From NCBI GenBank assembly GCA_014874175.1, contig JACWAD010000094.1:3158-67157 (forward strand): DNA of 64,000 nucleotides, written 5' to 3'. Source of the DNA: Thermoleophilia bacterium. GTDB lineage: Bacteria > Actinomycetota > Thermoleophilia > BMS3ABIN01. Each line of letters opens with the position of its first letter. Positions within the stretch are counted from its first letter, which is position 1. The notes below the pieces were generated by a model. That model searched no databases, was not told where the DNA came from, and saw only the letters and a list, made by a program, of their open reading frames with translations. The translations under genes were made by a program, and so were the position numbers. This document shows positions 2,878-61,365 of the stretch, piece by piece.

Positions 2878-3000
2878 CTACCGCTCCCTTATCATCGGTA
2901 AATTTGGCAAAATCGGCGGGACAGAAAAATTACGTTGAAGATGAAATTGCAGTGAGGCTTTCAGCATGCAACTCAATCGGCATGCCTGCAAAACCGGTTT

Positions 3001-3348
3001 TTATGCTGTGATGCCTTCAAGCGCTTCTTCCCTGGTCTGAAAGATATCGAAGACACTGTTTAGGCCTGTGATCTGGAAAATCCAGTTGACGTTTTCGTCC
3101 ACACTAACAAGAACGAGCCTGCCATCCTTGGGCTTGAGCCGCTTGACCCCTCCGATTAGCACCCCCAGGGCGGAGCTGTCAATGAAATGGACTCCCGACA
3201 TGTCAATAACGATCCTAAGCATTCCGTCTCCCAGGGCTTGCAGCAGAGCCTCTTTCAGCCGCGGAGCCGTGTAAAGGTCAAGCTCGCCGGCAACCTCGAT
3301 CACTGCAACCCCGCCGGCAGTTTGTTCAGTTGCGATATTGAATTCCAT
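3001..3348 (-). CDS. STAS-domain anti-sigma-factor antagonist (SpoIIAA/RsbV-like)
   Basis: 115 aa; ...GELDLYTAPRLKEAL...IDMSGVHFIDSSALGVL..., typical STAS fold motif. Confidence 0.8.
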   Translation of the reverse strand: MEFNIATEQTAGGVAVIEVAGELDLYTAPRLKEALLQALGDGMLRIVIDMSGVHFIDSSALGVLIGGVKRLKPKDGRLVLVSVDENVNWIFQITGLNSVFDIFQTREEALEGITA

Positions 3349-3834: not shown

Positions 3835-4221
3835 ATGAAGGGAACGCGCAAGAGGCAAAGACTCTTGGCATTGATCGGACTGACGGCCGTCGCCGCACTT
3901 TTTCCCTTTGCCTGCGGCTACAGTAGCGGTGGGACCCCGGCGGGAGGAGCGGCAACAGTTAGCGGAAATACAGCCAGCGTGTCGATGAAGAATATCGCCT
4001 TCAACCCCGCCGATATCACGGTCAGCAAAGGCACAAAAGTAACATGGACCAACGATGACTCCGTCGCCCATACGGCCACAGCCGACAACGGCATGTTTGA
4101 TTCGGGCAACATGGATCCGGGGAAATCGTTCAGCTTCACGTTCAGCCAAACGGGTTCATTCCCTTACTATTGCAAATACCACGTTTCACAAAACATGAAA
4201 GGGACTGTGACGGTCAAGTAG
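3835..4221 (+). CDS. cupredoxin (plastocyanin/pseudoazurin-like blue copper protein), signal peptide/probable lipoprotein
   Basis: Signal peptide ending ...FPFACGY. Copper ligands H (VAHT), C-x2-H (YYCKYH), M (NMKG). GAGGAG SD 4 nt before the ATG at 3835; track ORF starts at 3823. Confidence 0.7.
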   Translation: MKGTRKRQRLLALIGLTAVAALFPFACGYSSGGTPAGGAATVSGNTASVSMKNIAFNPADITVSKGTKVTWTNDDSVAHTATADNGMFDSGNMDPGKSFSFTFSQTGSFPYYCKYHVSQNMKGTVTVK

Positions 4222-4339: not shown

Positions 4340-5557
4340 ATGGCGGAAACAGCAGCCCAGAAAAAAATAAAAATTTACACAACCCCTGGTTGACCTTTTT
4401 GCCGGCGCCTGAAGGCTCTATTCCGTGAGAGGGGAATGGATTTCAGCGAGAAGGACGTGGCCGCCGACCTGCTGGCGCTCGCCGAGATGCGCAGCCTCAC
4501 CGGCAAGAGCTTCGTTCCCCAGATATTTATCGGCGACGAGTACATCGGCGGCTATCAGGATTTTCTCATCCTTGACGCCAGGGGGGAGATCGACCGCAAG
4601 CTGGGGCGGCGCCCGCATCCTGTCCGCGAAGTCGCCGAAATCTTTGACATGATCATCATCGGCGGCGGCCCGGCAGGGCTGACGGCGGCAGTTTATGCGG
4701 CCAGAAAGGGCATGAAAACCTTGCTCCTTGCCGACCTGCTCGGAGGGCAGCCGATCCTGACCGCGGACGTTGAGAATTACATGGGGTTTCAGTTTGTCAC
4801 AGGCCCGGAGCTGATGGCTAAGTTTGAAGAACAGGTGAGGCAGTTTCCCAACGTTGTGCTTATCACCGGTCAGCCAGTGACCAGGCTCGAGCTGGAAGGG
4901 GGCCTGAAAAAGGCGACGACCGCATCGGAAAAGTCATTTCTGGGGCGGAGCGTCATAATTGCCTCCGGCAAGCAGCCGCGAATGCTTAATATCCCGGGCG
5001 AGCGCGAGTATGTGGGCAGGGGCGTAAGTTATTGCGCAACCTGCGATGCGCCGCTTTGCGCGGGCGAGAGCGTCATGGTTGCCGGTGGCGGGAATTCCGC
5101 CATGGAGGCTGCGCTAGAACTGTCTGCGATCTGTCCCCACGTGCATCTGGTTGTGCGCGACAGGCTCAGGGGGGATGAGGTGCTGATGGGCAAGGTGCTG
5201 GCCGAAGACCGCATCTGCAAGCACCTCTCCTGGCAGCCTGCCGAGATCAAGGGGGACGGCAAGGAAGTTAAATCAGTCGCGATCGCGTCTGCCGACGGGA
5301 AGGACAGAAAGGAAATTGACGTCCGGGCGTTTTTTGTTGAGGCTGGCCTGCATCCAAACGCTGATTTTGCCGTCGGGCTGGTGCAGCTTAATCCCTTGGG
5401 GGAGATCATTGTCGACTGCGATTGCCGCACGGGCGTCGACGGGGTTTTTGCGGCCGGCGACGTCACCCAGGTGCGCGACAAGCAGATTGTGGTGGCGGCA
5501 GGCGAAGGCGCCAAGGCGGCCCTTTCGGCGTACGAGTACTTGCTGGTGCAGAGGTAG
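4340..5557 (+). CDS. selenoprotein: glutaredoxin-like domain (active site U-P-F-C, Sec encoded by in-frame TGA at 4391-4393) fused to low-Mr thioredoxin-reductase-like flavoprotein (CATC active site)
   Basis: ATG at 4340 with GGAGAG SD 6 nt upstream. Translation MAETAAQKKIKIYTTPG-TGA-PFCRRLKALFRERGMDFSEKDV...VPQIFIGDEYIGGYQDF... is a complete Grx fold only if TGA=Sec. It continues in frame into the track ORF 4436..5557 with GGGPAG and SYCATCD motifs. Confidence 0.65.
4391..4393 (+). other. in-frame UGA at the glutaredoxin active-site Cys position (putative selenocysteine codon); candidate SECIS hairpin 4409-4446
   Basis: TGA replaces the first Cys of the CPxC motif (IYTTPG-U-PFC). Downstream CUGAAG(4409-4414)/UUUCAG(4441-4446) can close a stem-loop. 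Confidence 0.55.
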
Positions 5558-7481: not shown

Positions 7482-7540
7482 AAGTCTGTTTTTTGCCAGC
7501 GTGATCCTGCGTGCTGGAACCTGGCAAAGATTAAAAAGAT

Positions 7541-7643
7541 TGCCAATGGGTAATTGTCATCCCGAGGCGATGCCGAAGGATCTCGGGCTTAGAACCCAGA
7601 CTCTTCGCCGCCTGCGGCGACTCAGAATGATATTTTACTGAGG
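7541..7643. repeat. palindromic intergenic repeat, family copy A (MITE-like or structured-RNA-like)
   Basis: ATTGTCATCCCGAGGCGATGCCGAAGGATCTCGGGC... is homologous to the elements at 18614-18700 and 58841-58965. Internal inverted repeats CCCGAG/CTCGGG and CGCCGC/GCGGCG. Confidence 0.6.
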
Positions 7644-7698
7644 AACTGACAAAAGCAACCTTTCTTTACCACGTGAAACTTTAAACGTGAAACTTTTT

Positions 7699-8940
7699 TT
7701 ACATGGCCGGCAGTTCTTCCTCCGCTTTGTAAGCGTATGATTGGGGCACCGGCTCGCCCAGCTGCCGGTCCAGCTCCGGCTCTTCCTTTCTGGCGGGGTA
7801 ATACCACAAGAAGCCGTCGATCATCATCAGCATCCCCGCACTGGCAAGCAGCATGCCCCACAATCCCGGCGCCCTAAGTTCGTATACCTTGGTCAGCCCA
7901 ACGCCGATGCTGGCAAAGACTATTCCCGTGCGGATGAATCCCAGCCCTGTCCTGGCGCGGGCGTAAACCGTGCGGTAACATGCGGCTATCGTCCTGTGCG
8001 CCGCCAGGATGTTGCGCTCCCGCGCCAGGTATGTCCGCATCCGGCTTTCCGGCGCCGGCTTCAGAATGGTGCTGTAGCTTGGCAGAAGGTCTTCCAGCCG
8101 GGCAAGCATTGTTTCCCTGGTTTTGGGACGGGGCGCATCTTCCAGGTGGTAACGCTCAAGGAAGGAGACTGTCGCCGCGGTCACCTCCGCCAGTGTTTGC
8201 GGACCTGCCATCCTAAGCATTGAATGGCGAAGCTTTCCATATTGCCAGGTGCCGAAGCCGGCAATCGCCAACCCCGCAGCAGCCAGCAGCCAGATCAACG
8301 CCTGCGAAAAGACAAACTTCCAGTCAAGAATGATAAACGCCGCCGCCAGCGTCACCGTACCCAGGCCCCACCGCGCCAGCGCCTGCCAGGTCCGCATGCG
8401 CGCCATTTCCGTGCGGTAACAGGCCAGCCGCGTCCGCCACGCCGCCATCGTGTTGCGCCAGAAGGCGAGCCCGGTGCGCTCAGTGCCGATAATGCGGCCG
8501 GGGCGGTCATTCAGGTAGTCCTGGACATACCAAAGAATTTCCATCACCAGGCTGACCCTGGGCGAATAGGGTCCCTGCACAAAGCGGTCGATCTCTTCGC
8601 GAACCACGGGCGAGCCCGGATCATTCAGGGCGGCAATGACCTTGCCGTTTTCAAGGATCAATGGGAACATGGGCTCACGCTTCAGCCTCTCCGGCTCCAG
8701 GCCTTCCAGCAGCTCGGGCGGCACGGGCAGACGCTCGTCAAACTCGATGGCGGGGAAGCCGAACTCCTCCGAGAGGGCGCCAAGCAGCTCTTTTTTTGGC
8801 ACTCCGTATTCTTCCATCAAAACCGCCTCGATTTCTGCGTTCCTTTCGGCGGCGGAAGCGTATGCGGCCTTAAGCTGCTTTTTGCTGATCACGCCGGTTT
8901 CCGCCAGCCGGCGGTATGTGACAAGTTGCCTAGAAATCAT
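7699..8940 (-). CDS. membrane protein: GspE/MshE N-terminal-like (T2SSE_N) domain + two reiterated DUF202(YidH)-type ERT/RT-x-LA repeat membrane modules
   Basis: Track ORF 7699..9030; likely start is the M at 8940 (MISRQLVTY...). N-terminus ...ISKKQLKAAYASAAERNAEIEAVLMEEYGVPKKELLGALSEEFGFPAIEFDE... Repeats ERTGLAFWRNTMAAWRTRLACYRTEMARMRT... and ERNILAAHRTIAACYRTVYARARTGLGFIRTG followed by TM helices. Confidence 0.6.
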   Translation of the reverse strand: MISRQLVTYRRLAETGVISKKQLKAAYASAAERNAEIEAVLMEEYGVPKKELLGALSEEFGFPAIEFDERLPVPPELLEGLEPERLKREPMFPLILENGKVIAALNDPGSPVVREEIDRFVQGPYSPRVSLVMEILWYVQDYLNDRPGRIIGTERTGLAFWRNTMAAWRTRLACYRTEMARMRTWQALARWGLGTVTLAAAFIILDWKFVFSQALIWLLAAAGLAIAGFGTWQYGKLRHSMLRMAGPQTLAEVTAATVSFLERYHLEDAPRPKTRETMLARLEDLLPSYSTILKPAPESRMRTYLARERNILAAHRTIAACYRTVYARARTGLGFIRTGIVFASIGVGLTKVYELRAPGLWGMLLASAGMLMMIDGFLWYYPARKEEPELDRQLGEPVPQSYAYKAEEELPAM

Positions 8941-17157: not shown

Positions 17158-18573
17158 ATGCCCGGTTCTTTCGAAATCATCAAGAAACAGCTTGCGGTCC
17201 GCCTCAAGCATGCGGCCGCCGAAGAGTCCATCATGCTCATCAGCGTCCTCAAGTGGACAGTGCTGGCCACGATCACGGGCGTGATAGTTGGCTTTTCTTC
17301 CGGCGGTTTTCTCTTGTTGCTGAAATGGGCGACGAACTACAGCGGCCAGTACTATTACTATTTTCTGTTGCTGCCGGTGGGCTTTTTCATCAGCTCCGTG
17401 CTGGTCAAGTACCTGGCCCCGGAAGCCAAGGGCCACGGCACCGAGAAAGTGATCGAGGCGGTGCACAAGCGTTCCGGCAAGATCGCGCTGCCGGTGGTGC
17501 CTGTCAAACTGGTGGCGACGCTGGCTACCCTGGTTGTGGGCGGCTCGGTCGGCAAGGAAGGCCCCAGCGCCCAGATCGGCGCCGGCCTGGCCTCGGCATT
17601 TGCCGACCTTTTCCGCTTTGGCAACTCCGACCGTAAAAAGCTGGTCATCTGCGGCATCAGCGCCGGCTTCGCCTCCGTGTTCGGCACGCCCATTGCCGGC
17701 TCCATTTTCGGCATCGAGGTGCTGTTCATTGGCGGCATGATGTACGAGGTGCTGCTGCCATCGTTCATCGCCGGCATTATCAGCTTCGAAGTCTCATCGC
17801 ACCTGGGAGTGTCATATTTTTACCATGCGATCAAATTCGCGCCCACCTTTAGCAGCTTGTTCTTCTCCAAGGTCATCCTGGCCGGCATTTTCTTTGGCGT
17901 CTGCTCGCTGCTGCTGATCGAGGGGCTGAAAATGGGCGAAAGGATTGCTCACAGGATGCGCTTCTGGCTGCCCCTGCGCGGAATCGTAGGCGGCGCCTTC
18001 CTGATCGTGCTGACGCTGATTTTTTCCAGGCAGTTCCTGGGCCTGGGGCTTGACAGTATCCAGGGAGCCCTGACGGGAGCGCAGATTGTCTGGTACGCGT
18101 TCCTGCTCAAGATTGTTTTTACGAGCATCACCTTGGGCATGGAAGGAAGCGGCGGCATCATTACACCAATATTCTTCGTCGGCGCCACCGCCGGCAGCGC
18201 TTTCAGCTCTCTGCTTGGTCTCGACCCCGCTACTTTTGCCGCCATCGGCATGGTGGGGCTGGTGGCCGGAGCCGCCAATACGCCGATCGCCGCCAGCATT
18301 CTCACGGTGGAACTGTTTGGCCCGGCGATCGCCCCTTACGCCGCCATCGCCGCCGTGATCAGCTTTCTGATCTCTGGTCACAGAAGCGTTTACCCATCCC
18401 AGGTGCTGGCCATGGCCAAGTCTCCTTCGCTTGAGGTGGAAAAGGGATGCGAGATTGTGGAGGCGCACCCGACATTCGCGCTGCGGGAAAAGAGCCTGAT
18501 CTCTTTTCTGTACTACAGGGTCTGGCGGTTTCTCTGCAACCTGGGAGGGCGCAGGGACGAGGGGAAACGGTAG
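17158..18573 (+). CDS. ClC family voltage-gated chloride channel / H+-Cl- antiporter
   Basis: 471 aa; GSVGKEGP and GTPIAGSIFGIEVLF selectivity motifs. GKEGP identifies the canonical Cl- type, not the CLC-F type. Confidence 0.85.
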   Translation: MPGSFEIIKKQLAVRLKHAAAEESIMLISVLKWTVLATITGVIVGFSSGGFLLLLKWATNYSGQYYYYFLLLPVGFFISSVLVKYLAPEAKGHGTEKVIEAVHKRSGKIALPVVPVKLVATLATLVVGGSVGKEGPSAQIGAGLASAFADLFRFGNSDRKKLVICGISAGFASVFGTPIAGSIFGIEVLFIGGMMYEVLLPSFIAGIISFEVSSHLGVSYFYHAIKFAPTFSSLFFSKVILAGIFFGVCSLLLIEGLKMGERIAHRMRFWLPLRGIVGGAFLIVLTLIFSRQFLGLGLDSIQGALTGAQIVWYAFLLKIVFTSITLGMEGSGGIITPIFFVGATAGSAFSSLLGLDPATFAAIGMVGLVAGAANTPIAASILTVELFGPAIAPYAAIAAVISFLISGHRSVYPSQVLAMAKSPSLEVEKGCEIVEAHPTFALREKSLISFLYYRVWRFLCNLGGRRDEGKR

Positions 18574-18613
18574 CCGGTTTGCAAACTTGCCGGATTCAGT
18601 TAGATACTGTGCT

Positions 18614-18700
18614 GTGTCATCCTGAGCCGAGAGTGAATGATCTTGTTTGAGGCGGCTCAACGTCTTTCCTGGAGCGAAACAAGGGATGGCGTCTTTTCGT
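18614..18700. repeat. palindromic intergenic repeat, family copy B
   Basis: TGTCATCCTGAGCCGAGAGTGAATGATCTTG...GCGAAACAAGGGATGGCG aligns to both ends of copy C. Confidence 0.55.
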
Positions 18701-32523: not shown

Positions 32524-32685
32524 CATCAGCAGATCCTTCTTTGTAAGCCTGTCATTCGGGGGAGCGTAGCGACGAAGAATCTCAAAACTCGAGATCCTTC
32601 GCCTTTGGCTCGTGATGACAACCACTGCTCAGGATAACAACCATTGCTCGTGATGACAGGACATGCAAGCCGGCCGGCAGGTCAA

Positions 32686-50218: not shown

Positions 50219-50995
50219 CTAGTGCAGCGCCGTGTAGGTTGCGATCACGCCCACCAGGTTAAAAAGCATGTGCCCGCCGATGGAAGGCAAGAGCGAATGG
50301 GTGCGGTGGACGAGAAATGCAAAACCGAAGCCGAGCAGGAAGATGGGCACGAAGATATCCAGCTGAAAATGCGCCAGGGCAAAGATGGACGCCGACAGCA
50401 CTGCGGCGGGAAAAAATCCAAGGCCGCGCTCCAGCCCCTGGTGGATGATGCCGCGGAAGAAGGTCTCCTCCGCCAGCGGTGCGATGATGACAATCTGAAG
50501 CACGGCCAGCGCCAGGTTAAACAGGCCTGGCTGGATCTCCTGAAGCGCCTGCTGCGGGCTTGGCGTGACGAACTGCTCATAAACTGCTGAGCCCAGGTAG
50601 GAAAGGAACAGCACCGCCAGCACCATCAGCGCCCCTTTAACCGGAGTAGTCGGCCGGTATCCGAGCGTTGCCGACCTGAACTGGTAACGGCGCAGCTTCA
50701 GATAGCCAAAGGCTGCGCCCAGGGTGACTACCCACTGTAGAACAAGAAATGCCAGGCTCAGCAGCGGCTGCTGCAGCACATCCATGGATGTGGGCGAGAG
50801 CAGCCTCAAAAACAGGCTCAGAATAATCAGGTCGGCCGCGGCAACCAGGGCGATGATCGCGAACACGTCGCGCACCGACCAGGGCACCGCGCCCGGCCTT
50901 TGCTGCCCCTGCCTGACTTCCTCCGGCTCTGCTTCCGGATTTAGAAGGTCATACTGAACCATAAAACAGGTCCCCCGCTCCTCTCGGGATGACAC
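50219..50995 (-). CDS. CPBP family intramembrane glutamic endopeptidase (CAAX protease/Abi-like)
   Basis: 258 aa; EExxxR (LAEETFFRG) and FxxxH (ALAHFQ) motifs. Confidence 0.8.
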   Translation of the reverse strand: MSSREERGTCFMVQYDLLNPEAEPEEVRQGQQRPGAVPWSVRDVFAIIALVAAADLIILSLFLRLLSPTSMDVLQQPLLSLAFLVLQWVVTLGAAFGYLKLRRYQFRSATLGYRPTTPVKGALMVLAVLFLSYLGSAVYEQFVTPSPQQALQEIQPGLFNLALAVLQIVIIAPLAEETFFRGIIHQGLERGLGFFPAAVLSASIFALAHFQLDIFVPIFLLGFGFAFLVHRTHSLLPSIGGHMLFNLVGVIATYTALH

Positions 50996-51045
50996 ATTAA
51001 CGGTATGACAGCCATTAATACGACATTCTGAATATCGGCCAACAA

Positions 51046-58506: not shown

Positions 58507-58840
58507 GAAAGCTCCTCGATCCGGGTAGGTCAGGCAAGGAAAAAGTATTATATCACCAGGGAAAGGAAACGAGGAGTAATCTGACTTGGCCGCGAGATAT
58601 AGGTGACGCGCCTCGGCGCCGGAGAAAGCGTCCACGATTTCATCGCCGGCTGGCCGGATGAATCGGCCGGGCGGGCCTGGGGCCATCCTGTTGATATAAT
58701 ATTTAACGCGGGTAAAATGTATATCTCCGATGACTCGGGCGGTTCGATATACAAGGTGAGAAGGATGGCGCCCGAATTTGGAGCATATAATAACTATCTC
58801 AAAAAGGTTTTTTAAATTGATCATACAACTGGCTCAGGTC

Positions 58841-58965
58841 CACTCATGATTGTCATTCCGAGCGGAGCGAGGAATCTGCTTTTATCGGAAAAGCAGATCC
58901 TTACGTCGCGCTTCGCGCTCCTCAGAGCCTGCCCTGAGCATTGCGAAGGGATGACAATACCTGAA
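58841..58965. repeat. palindromic intergenic repeat, family copy C (most complete copy, with terminal inverted repeats)
   Basis: ATTGTCATTCCGAGCGGAGCGAGGAATCTGCTTTTATCGGAAAAGCAGAT...GCGCTTCGCGC...CTCAG..CTGAG..CATTGCGAAGGGATGACAAT. Ends are mutual reverse complements (TGTCATTCC/GGGATGACA) and there are several internal hairpins. Confidence 0.6.
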
Positions 58966-59032
58966 TGAATTGTATGATCAGTTTTATTAAATAGTAACTT
59001 TGACAAATATCTTAAGGGACGCAGGGAGCAAA

Positions 59033-60351: not shown

Positions 60352-61365
60352 CTAAGCTTCGCCGGCATGGAAATCAGTCTGTTTGCGCGCCTTTTCCTCG
60401 TCGTCGATCATCGCTGCAAATTCGCTGACAATGCCGGGATCCCATTGCCTGCCGGCCTCGCGCTCAAGGGTGTTTAAGGCCTGGCTTTGCGACATCGGCG
60501 GCCGGTATGGCCGCGGCGAGGTCATGGCGTCATAGGCGTCCACGACCGAGATTATCCTCGCTTCGACCGGAATCTCGTTGCCAACCAGGTGATCGGGATA
60601 GCCTTTGCCGTCGTAGCGCTCCTGATGATAGCGGATCACCGTCAGGAGCAGATTGGCGGACCTTAGCGGCCTGACAATTTTCTCGCCGATAGCGGGGTGA
60701 TCCTGGACCGCGATCAACTCCTTTGTTGACAGGGGGCCCCGCTTTTGCAGGATCGATTCGCTGATGCCGATCTTGCCGATGTCGTGAAGAATGCCGGCAT
60801 CGCGGATGACATCCTGCTGCTCCCGGGACAGGCCCAGCCTTTTTGCCAACCTGACCCCGTAACCGGAGACGCGCTCGGAATGACCGCGCGTGTAGGGATC
60901 GCTGGCTTCGATTGCCAGGGCGAGGGTGTAAATTACGTCCCGGGCGCTTTCCAGATCTTCATTTAAATGCTTTGTCCTTAGCAGGGATTTTACCCTTATC
61001 AAAAGCTCCATCTTGTCAATGGGCTTGGAAAGGAACTCGTCTGCCCCTGCCTCGAACCCTTTCACCTTGTCATCAATTTCCCGAAGCGCCGTAAGCAGCA
61101 TGACGGGGATGCGGCGCGTTTCCTCCCCGGCCTTTATCTTGCGGCAGGCCTGGTAGCCGTTGACGCCGGGCATCATCACATCTAGGATGATCAGGTCGGG
61201 AAGGCCGGTGCCGGAGTCCCTGCCGTCCAGAATCTCCAGTGCTTCGGCGCCGCTGTAGGCGCAAATGACCTTGTAGCCGGCGCCTGCGAGGTATGCCTCC
61301 AGCAGCTGCACATTGGGCACGTTATCGTCAACTGTTAATATCTTGTCCTGATGGTTGGTCGTCAT
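60352..61365 (-). CDS. response regulator with HD-GYP c-di-GMP phosphodiesterase domain (RpfG-like)
   Basis: 337 aa; REC domain (phospho-acceptor D in ...LIILDVMMP...); HD-GYP motifs HDIGK, GKGYP. Confidence 0.85.
   Translation of the reverse strand: MTTNHQDKILTVDDNVPNVQLLEAYLAGAGYKVICAYSGAEALEILDGRDSGTGLPDLIILDVMMPGVNGYQACRKIKAGEETRRIPVMLLTALREIDDKVKGFEAGADEFLSKPIDKMELLIRVKSLLRTKHLNEDLESARDVIYTLALAIEASDPYTRGHSERVSGYGVRLAKRLGLSREQQDVIRDAGILHDIGKIGISESILQKRGPLSTKELIAVQDHPAIGEKIVRPLRSANLLLTVIRYHQERYDGKGYPDHLVGNEIPVEARIISVVDAYDAMTSPRPYRPPMSQSQALNTLEREAGRQWDPGIVSEFAAMIDDEEKARKQTDFHAGEA

Follow-up and report, generated by a model that had tools for sequence, protein, structure and literature searches.

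Tagged hairpin repeats between the genes of a Thermoleophilia bacterium are probably CGTC-type REPs that correspond to Ssn-related motifs

Repetitive extragenic palindromes (REPs) that carry a CGTC tag form a superfamily that was described from five phyla by Di Nocera, De Gregorio and Rocco in 2013 (PMC3733652). The tag is "changed to TGTC in many repeats" (or to CCTC), and members include dRS3 of Neisseria and RPE-4 and RPE-6 of Rickettsia. These repeats have fully paired stems of 8–9 bp that "almost invariably" start with A-T, a loop of 4–5 nt, and a 3-nt tail. Most of them are inverted pairs with the tags outside (HH dimers) and with spacers of 20–100 bp; TT and HT pairs are rare, some copies lie within larger palindromes, and CGTC or GTAG dimers that had inserted inside palindromes were reported. 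No Y1 transposase was found flanked by CGTC repeats. Here we describe related elements in a 64,000-nucleotide stretch from a Thermoleophilia bacterium (positions 3,158 to 67,157 of contig JACWAD010000094.1, assembly GCA_014874175.1), which we will call the window.

Ssn-related motifs (SRMs) are hairpins that flank the genes for 94-amino-acid, single-domain GIY-YIG proteins (Chenal et al. 2025, PMC11893778). SRMs include the NTS of Neisseria (CGTCATTCCCGCGMAVGCGGGAATCYRG), which is a longer, neisserial form of the CGTC-type hairpin. The nuclease SsnA binds the hairpin only as single-stranded DNA (ssDNA), on one strand and not as RNA, and cuts a few bases upstream. The GTC before the palindrome is most important for cutting, and the C after the palindrome is most important for binding. 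In N. meningitidis, NTS and SsnA modulate transformation (PMC11893778). Another related system is the REPIN, in which two inverted REP hairpins form a hairpin of about 100 nt; REPINs have a GTAG tag and depend on RAYT, a Y1 HUH transposase (Bertels and Rainey 2011, PMC3116915). Finally, d(GCGNAGC) and d(GCGNNAGC) are known to form extraordinarily stable DNA mini-hairpins (Hirao and co-workers; reviewed in PMC13037366).

The window contains four inverted-pair elements (A to D) and one solo unit, that is, at least five copies. An earlier note on this DNA had recognized A, B, and C as a three-copy family of mobile miniature elements or structured RNAs, but could not place it in a named family. 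The 5' end that it gave for A, B, and C (TTGTCATYCYGAG) and the 3' end that it gave for B and C (GCGAA...GGGATG(A/G)C) are present as quoted. However, the family is larger: we found a fourth dimer (32547–32660) and a solo unit (50964–50997). The note also described the copies as lying on the same strand, which holds only as to which half of each copy is better preserved; each copy is itself a pair of inverted units. Its description of the copies as strictly intergenic is correct. We propose that these elements are CGTC/TGTC-tagged REPs (PMC3733652), which correspond to SRMs (PMC11893778), in a distinct sequence form; we consider this placement probable.

Each unit is about 26–35 nt long and has a YGTC tag, a 5-bp stem (ATYCY/RGRAT), a tandem G·A, an inner hairpin, and then CT. 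In a dimer, two units are inverted, with their tags outside and their tails toward a short spacer, for a total of about 80–110 nt. The inner hairpin varies in length with compensating changes (for instance, GCCGCAGGC and CCACCGTAGGTGG), and its commonest sequences are GCGNAGC and GCGNNAGC, which are exactly the stable mini-hairpins. (The review of those mini-hairpins, PMC13037366, covers their physical chemistry and phage and plasmid origins, but no genome-wide repeat family.) The base just 5' of GTC is T in 72–77% of units and C in 21–23%; GTC itself was fixed by our search pattern. Other stem types are present as well (ATGCT/AGCAT and ACCCT/AGGGT).

Covariation, which the earlier note had suggested as a check, confirms that the structure is conserved. 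Among the matches listed, each of the two free Y/R pairs of the stem is Watson-Crick in 158 of 162 units: one is T-A in 90, C-G in 68, and C·A in 4, and the other is T-A in 109, C-G in 49, C·A in 3, and T·G in 1. We also aligned 110 distinct units that were taken from genomes; here one pair is CG in 54, UA in 54, and something else in 2, and the other is UA in 69, CG in 40, and something else in 1. None of 500 shuffles reached the covariation score of this alignment, and every slid register collapses. Alignment columns A8, T9, A37, and T38 are invariant, as is C39, the C directly after the palindrome.

Like the CGTC REPs, the units have an unpaired YGTC tag, a stem that starts with AT, and a short unpaired tail; they are intergenic and have no link to a transposase. 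Furthermore, HH dimers dominate, and element C is nested in a larger palindrome. The differences are that the stem of our unit has 9 positions, with G·A/A·G at positions 6–7; that the loop is GNA or GNNA (3–4 nt) or a longer inner hairpin; that the tail is CT(C) instead of CCA; and that the distribution is far wider than five phyla. The VIPAKAGI-type peptides of intragenic CGTC REPs (PMC3733652) back-translate to the same skeleton, such as GTCATTCCCGCGAAAGCGGGAATC. A literal search for the sequence in 8 million papers found no match. The units resemble SRMs in that YGTC is immediately 5' of a palindrome whose first bases are AT and an invariant C comes right after the palindrome, and also in being mostly intergenic and lying on both sides of a single-domain GIY-YIG gene of about 94 amino acids. 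The units keep the very bases that matter most to SsnA for cutting and binding. Unlike in SRMs, two G·A mismatches are conserved in their stem, and their inner hairpin varies and is often GCGNAGC. With REPINs they share the paired inverted hairpins, the lack of autonomy, the intergenic location, and lineage-specific expansion. But they have YGTC and a GIY-YIG nuclease in place of GTAG and a Y1 HUH transposase, and the window's copies have diverged, while the REPINs in any one genome are usually almost identical to each other.

The GIY-YIG partner came to light beside units in other genomes. Among the matches listed, an open reading frame (ORF) of about 95 amino acids with a GIY-YIG domain abuts the units in 3 of 120 genome loci. 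These three proteins come from three different phyla and are 46–54% identical to each other, and PF01541 is their only domain. We used them to retrieve 80 metagenome loci that encode relatives. Of the 80 loci, 52 have a unit no more than 200 nt upstream of the gene, 50 have one no more than 250 nt downstream, and 39 have both. Close to the gene (up to 250 nt away), the density is 4.55 units per kb, versus 0.21 per kb elsewhere in the same loci (a 22-fold enrichment). The commonest arrangement is a plus-strand unit, the gene, and a minus-strand unit, with the tags outside. For instance, in a compact cassette (locus L264), the units are at 2958–2982 (+) and 3295–3319 (−), with the gene at 3001–3267. 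An example from a cultured organism is on plasmid p1 of Planktothrix agardhii No.66 (L329; NZ_LR882964.1, 17347–20613), where two variant dimers lie upstream of the GIY-YIG gene (WP_083616022.1), and an array of half-units plus a dimer lie downstream. This cassette has an MmeI-type restriction-modification gene on one side and drmA of a DISARM system on the other, which is a defence-island context.

The partner protein is a homolog of SsnA. A tblastn search of plasmid records with the L264 protein matched a Neisseria gonorrhoeae record (49% identity, E = 7e-17), along with Azospirillum, Novosphingobium, Sphingobium, and Sinorhizobium, which are genera with described CGTC REPs. The N. gonorrhoeae ORF has 94 amino acids, with Y6, Y17, and E64 as counted on its translation, and lies amid nine NTS repeats. 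The Planktothrix protein is 48% identical to this SsnA ortholog over 88 of 94 amino acids (E = 2e-28; hhalign probability 99.6); the threshold for SsnA homology that was used by Chenal et al. is E < 1e-10 (PMC11893778). The partner protein keeps Y17 and E64 (SsnA numbering), and the tyrosine of its first motif is within one residue of Y6. At L318 and L325, close homologs instead have perfect, NTS-like hairpins on their flanks, so one clade of proteins accompanies both types of hairpin. A search of the PDB with the GIY-YIG alignment found only distant UPF0213 proteins and no structure of SsnA.

The family extends far beyond Thermoleophilia. A strict pattern for the unit (GTCATYCYGAG-N4-16-GARGRATCT) matched at least 120 stretches in a viral collection and at least 120 in species-representative genomes. 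The expectation for this pattern is about 4e-10 per base, and tens to a few hundred chance matches are possible in collections so large. However, we regard the matches as a real family because of the covariation, the inner hairpin with its compensating changes, and the pairing with tags outside. The hairpin unit is spread over almost all of the bacterial phyla sampled, including candidate-phyla bacteria, and over viral contigs. Carriers among the matches listed include Chloroflexota, Acidobacteriota, Nitrospirota, Planctomycetota, Bacteroidota, Firmicutes, Saccharibacteria, Gracilibacteria, Verrucomicrobiota, Omnitrophota, Melainabacteria, Gemmatimonadota, alpha-, beta-, gamma-, and delta-proteobacteria, and others. 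In the 120 genome loci (again among the matches listed), there are 87 pairs with tags outside, 56 solo units, 13 pairs with tags inside, and 11 tandem pairs; the gaps between paired units are mostly 2–82 nt. All four of the window's dimers have their tags outside.

As to viruses, the family is common on IMG/VR contigs (L004–L123; for instance, L050 has copies at 3860–4064, 5344–5481, and 8589–8687), and among the matches listed there are up to six strict units on one 10-kb contig that is classed as viral. One apparent unit, GTCATTCTGAGGAGCGCCATTTACACGAAGAATCT, is repeated in a set of related viral contigs, but it overlaps a long conserved ORF and so is probably a coding match, not a family member. 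We also noticed tandem arrays of half-units, each with a tag, the 5' half of the stem, and about 10 nt, at a period of 18–29 nt and 5' of a full unit. In about 320 loci we counted 33 head arrays of this kind with at least three heads, and 22 of these terminate in a full unit. Besides the window (32609–32660, minus strand), sites include L081 (166–310 and 3792–3878), L138 (7250 and 3763), L220, L267 (2782/2825), and L329 (1840–1909). Head arrays are also seen with NTS-like units (L324). They possibly arise from repeated cutting and slippage at the tag.

The repeats in the window are not due to chance. The head motif TGTCATYCYGAG has nine matches in the window with at most one mismatch, as compared to 0.70 ± 0.93 in dinucleotide shuffles, and none of 100 shuffles reached nine. 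(A head match at 60874–60885 lies inside an HD-GYP gene, in the codons for …GHSERV…, and is a chance match.) A covariance model that was built solely from units of other organisms, R1, has the window's units as its eight best matches in the window (E = 9e-9 to 0.23), and all other matches have E ≥ 0.9. Furthermore, as single strands, elements A, C, and D fold better than shuffled sequences on both strands (z of −2.1 to −5.2). The fold of element B is no better than shuffles.

Four assemblies from relatives show synteny with the window: GCA_021787475.1, a contig from ENA (L003), GCA_027331575.1, and GCA_054635875.1. At the site of element A, the spacer downstream of ade is 63, 63, and 37 nt long in three of the relatives' loci (L001, L002, and L003) versus 217 nt in the window, and the element is absent. 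At the site of element C, the spacer between the GSDH-type gene and the DUF1844 gene is 48 nt in relatives versus 218 nt in the window. For element B, GCA_021787475.1 lacks the adjacent ClC gene, and the other relative's locus ends before the site. Searching about 103 kb from the four relatives with R1 found no unit, versus eight in the 64-kb window. As judged from these comparisons, the elements are lineage-specific insertions that were made once this lineage had parted from its closest sequenced relatives: they are absent from four syntenic relatives, and the alternative, loss in all four, is less parsimonious.

Several observations weigh against placing the elements with the SRMs or against the view that they spread by insertion. 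The published SRM pattern, HGTCWYN(0-2)YYVSBRHN(0-5)WNVSBRGN(0-2)RNCYNB, matches none of 322 distinct units and nothing in the window, while the NTS controls do match. The pattern fails because the unit conserves a G·A/A·G pair of positions and has another inner part. We still assign the repeat to the CGTC REPs and SRMs because the pattern is a search heuristic, and because the tag, the palindrome, the trailing C, and the flanking of an SsnA homolog are all present. That an Ssn would cleave the G·A variant is an extrapolation from a related type of hairpin. Neither the window nor the loci of the relatives contain an ssn-like ORF, and the documented role of Ssn is that of a transformation-restricting nuclease and not of a transposase (PMC11893778). 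The window's units are only about 60–70% alike and have no common spacer, unlike an actively spreading population. At the site orthologous to element D, one relative carries an unrelated repeat that is about as long, in a spacer of the same length, which indicates turnover instead of a clean empty site. Finally, our figures for abundance and taxonomic spread are samples of the collections, not counts.

The fold of element C as a whole (58848–58959) has z = −5.2. Its left unit, U5 (58848–58881, plus strand; TGTC ATTCC GA GCGGAGC GA GGAAT CT), is wholly canonical: it matches the strict pattern and scores 43.3 bits with R1 (E = 9e-9). Two features that the earlier note saw in this copy are indeed there. 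The termini, ATTGTCATTCC and GGGATGACAAT, are inverted repeats of 11 nt that are 91% complementary, and the central spacer has a hairpin, ATCTGCTTTT-ATCGG-AAAAGCAGAT (58874–58898), whose arms are 100% complementary. The right arm (58891–58959, minus strand) is composite, with a head (GTCATCC) at 58958, a tail (GGATCT) at 58891, and 48 nt between them; R1 matches it at E = 0.23 with a 48-nt insertion. Those 48 nt hold another, headless unit (with GCGAAGC) and a CTCAG/CTGAG hairpin. Around the entire element is an outer palindrome (58814–58984), with 26-nt arms at 58814–58839 and 58959–58984 that are 81% complementary.

As the earlier note had it, element C lies beside a gene remnant, which encodes the last 53 amino acids of a GSDH-type dehydrogenase (58609–58767, plus strand, in a remnant region noted up to 58815). 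The remnant is 66% identical to residues 336–388 of an intact 390-amino-acid gene in a relative (L327), and about 335 codons of the GSDH gene have been deleted between mtnP and the remnant. The longest ORF for mtnP (391 amino acids) is over-extended, as its homologs have 284–285 amino acids; MtnP homologs at 80–90% identity are from metagenome-assembled genomes of Thermoleophilia or Actinomycetota, so the host is probably an uncultured thermoleophilian. At the outer end of C, a −35-like ATGACA and a TATGAT 16 nt downstream match the sigma-70 promoter at 10 of 12 positions (58951–58978, plus strand). This match points toward the DUF1844 gene and is a match to the consensus alone.

Element A (7552–7635) is an HH dimer whose fold has z = −2.4 on the plus strand and −3.3 on the minus strand. 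The left unit, U1 (7552–7587, plus strand; TGTC ATCCC GA GGCGATGCC GA AGGAT CT), is well kept, with a single C·A within the basal stem; it matches the strict pattern and scores 35.3 bits with R1 (E = 1e-6). The right unit, U2 (7594–7635, minus strand; TATC ATTCT GA GTCGCCGCAGGCGGC GA AGAGT CT), has a tag with a G>A mutation and a long inner hairpin (R1, E = 0.026), and the right end of the element is the head motif on the opposite strand (7621–7632). The inner hairpin of U2, TCGCCGCAGGCGGCGAAG (7599–7631, minus strand), is nearly identical to TCGCCGCAGGCGGACGAAG on a metagenome contig (L248, 799–832, minus strand), in the unit that flanks a GIY-YIG gene. This likeness hints at a specific sub-lineage of the hairpin repeat. 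The enlarged spacer downstream of ade also contains, at 7484–7529 and 7672–7697, another hairpin (TTTTGCCAG...CTGGCAAA) and a direct repeat (ACGTGAAACTTT, two copies), which are outside the hairpin family and absent from the relatives.

In element D (32547–32660), unit U4 (32547–32586, plus strand; TGTC ATTC GGGG GA GCGTAGC GAC GA AGAAT CT) forms an inverted-repeat pair (I1) with element A and has an R1 match at E = 0.012. Unit U3 (32588–32623, minus strand; TGTC ATCAC GA GCCAAAGGC GA AGGAT CT) scores 26.9 bits (E = 1e-4, match 32588–32642), and the fold of the dimer has z = −4.4. Two further partial heads, TGTCATCACGAGCAATGG and TTGTTATCCTGAGCAGTGG, lie in tandem 5' of U3 at a 19-nt period (32624–32660, minus strand). 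In GCA_021787475.1, the spacer that is orthologous to 32524–32685 (L246, 18693–18857) has GGTAGGC twice and sequences like AGGCTAAAAGCCTGCCATCT twice. For palindromic repeats, the D spacer appears to be a hot spot.

In element B (18612–18691), the left unit, U7 (18612–18647, plus strand; TGTC ATCCT GA GCCGAGAGT GA ATGAT CT), is decayed but scores 20.4 bits (E = 0.006). The spacer and the strongly decayed right arm (18648–18691, minus strand, ...GCGAAACAAGGGATGGCG) were read in the sequence; the right half has no tag and is too eroded for scoring, and the covariance model does not match it. The ClC channel gene next to B (17158–18573) is present in the ENA relative but absent from GCA_021787475.1, which has only a 78-amino-acid ORF between the genes for Usp and AICARFT (L246, 3653–4389). 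The solo unit (50964–50997, minus strand; TGTC ATCCC GA GAGGAGC GG GGGAC CT) is decayed, with an exact head match at 50983–50994 and an R1 match at E = 0.16, and sits immediately upstream of an Rce1-like gene. Overall, just two of the eight dimer units are well kept (U5 and U1), the other six have lost stem pairs or the tag, and the ninth unit, the solo, is decayed too. TGTC is kept in seven of the nine units; the exceptions are U2 (TATC) and the right arm of B (no tag).

We considered several other explanations. One is that the repeats are a structured RNA family (a 3'-untranslated-region stabilizer, a terminator, or a small RNA), which was one of the earlier note's suggestions. Elements A and D are flanked by convergent genes, either strand of the dimers folds well as RNA (z of −2.1 to −5.2), and E. 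coli REPs can influence mRNA stability (PMC12306157). However, B and the solo unit are between co-directional genes and C is between a gene remnant and a gene start, so the elements have no shared position relative to transcription, being found in convergent, co-directional, and divergent settings alike, and they occur in both orientations relative to the neighboring genes. In an Rfam scan, which had also been suggested, only a tRNA reaches its gathering score in the window, and nothing meaningful turns up around copy A at E ≤ 10 or, at E ≤ 1, in three loci whose units are canonical. Terminator scans found no intrinsic-terminator signature (no T-run terminators) overlapping any element. Furthermore, the exceptions to pairing on the tagged strand are not G·U (seven are C·A and one is T·G), the loop is the DNA-specific mini-hairpin GCGNAGC, and SsnA does not bind RNA (PMC11893778). 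So we consider an RNA family to be very unlikely. The other half of the earlier suggestion, a MITE/REP-like mobile miniature element, is supported: the copies are inverted REP-type pairs, they are absent from the relatives' spacers, and they have the layout of the cassette without the gene.

What kind of mobile element is another question. A classical MITE (a miniature transposable element with inverted repeats), a deletion derivative of an insertion sequence with a DDE transposase, would be small and intergenic, would differ in presence between relatives, and would have terminal inverted repeats, for which ATTGTCAT...ATGACAAT could be taken. But the "terminal repeat" is a hairpin in its own right, which covaries and has an oriented tag, and the gene between such ends encodes a 94-amino-acid nuclease. 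Also, the earlier note had proposed to look for target-site duplications, and no direct repeats flank any of the four dimers. Clustering the ORFs within 600 nt of units at 240 loci (among the matches listed) found no DDE transposase, and indeed no transposase or RAYT family, only phage structural genes from related viral contigs. (It also gave no support to a link with 23S-rRNA intervening-sequence cassettes, with four-helix-bundle or GxxExxY genes.) We consider a classical MITE to be highly implausible. REPIN-type elements that are moved by RAYT (TnpA_REP, a HUH Y1 transposase), as for GTAG-tagged REPs, would have the same layout, with tagged hairpins, inverted pairs, spacers of 20–100 nt, intergenic locations, and no target duplication, and HUH Y1 enzymes likewise act on ssDNA hairpins (PMC6006769). 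This seems inconsistent with the tag, which is YGTC and not GT[AG]G, with the absence of Y1 transposases flanked by CGTC repeats (PMC3733652), with the ORF clustering, and with the 22-fold enrichment of a GIY-YIG gene beside the units; we consider it quite unlikely. Finally, the units might be host-selected sites that are still functional in the source genome, for instance by limiting recombination or DNA uptake. The role of NTS and SsnA in N. meningitidis (PMC11893778) and the defence genes on both sides of the Planktothrix cassette would fit with this, but in most of the window's dimer units stem pairs or the tag are gone, relatives do not conserve the sites, and the ssn gene is missing from the window and from the relatives' loci. 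This too is unlikely.

Instead, we return to the CGTC REPs and SRMs, and to how such repeats might spread. When the DNA becomes single-stranded (during replication, transformation, or repair), a unit would fold, and a cognate Ssn would bind the folded unit and cut a few bases 5' of the tag. The activity of Ssn, or repair after the cuts, would then spread and reshuffle the repeats, and tandem half-units would arise by the same process. The ~80-nt dimers look like non-autonomous derivatives of the cassette, as their layout is that of unit(+), ssn, unit(−) without the gene, and they may owe their spread to Ssn or to post-cut repair. In the strongest form of this proposal, the G·A/mini-hairpin variant and its GIY-YIG partner are an autonomous/non-autonomous pair: a master of about 360–450 nt (unit, ssn, unit) and MITE-like dimers of about 80 nt that are copied or transposed by a GIY-YIG ssDNA nuclease. 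We offer this form tentatively and consider it rather doubtful. We know of no enzyme that has been found to mobilize CGTC-type REPs since 2013. If the proposal is true, then it explains how the "transposase-less" CGTC REPs multiply and why half-units build up on the 5' side, and the master/derivative system spans nearly all bacterial phyla, as well as phage contigs, while being largely unseen by the published SRM pattern. Either way, the relation between cassettes and dimers is a testable idea for the spread of CGTC-type REPs.

Within the window, the insertion of a hairpin repeat, selfish or domesticated, explains four oversized intergenic spacers, and nothing points to a regulatory RNA. Most copies have decayed since insertion. 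They are most likely ageing relics that lack a sequence-specific role; a hairpin in a transcript or a −35-like ATGACA at an outer end would be an incidental effect. They are presumably inactive in this genome. More broadly, one form of hairpin, GTCATYCYGA-GCGNAGC-GARGRATCT, recurs in practically every bacterial phylum that we sampled. As this variant is tied to an SsnA-like nuclease and yet escapes the SRM pattern, current estimates of the prevalence of Ssn/hairpin pairs will be too low. It would be noteworthy if phages truly carry hairpins that a host ssDNA nuclease targets. And for the use of Ssn proteins as ssDNA tools, the Planktothrix agardhii plasmid p1 may provide a new pair of enzyme and site from a cultured source.

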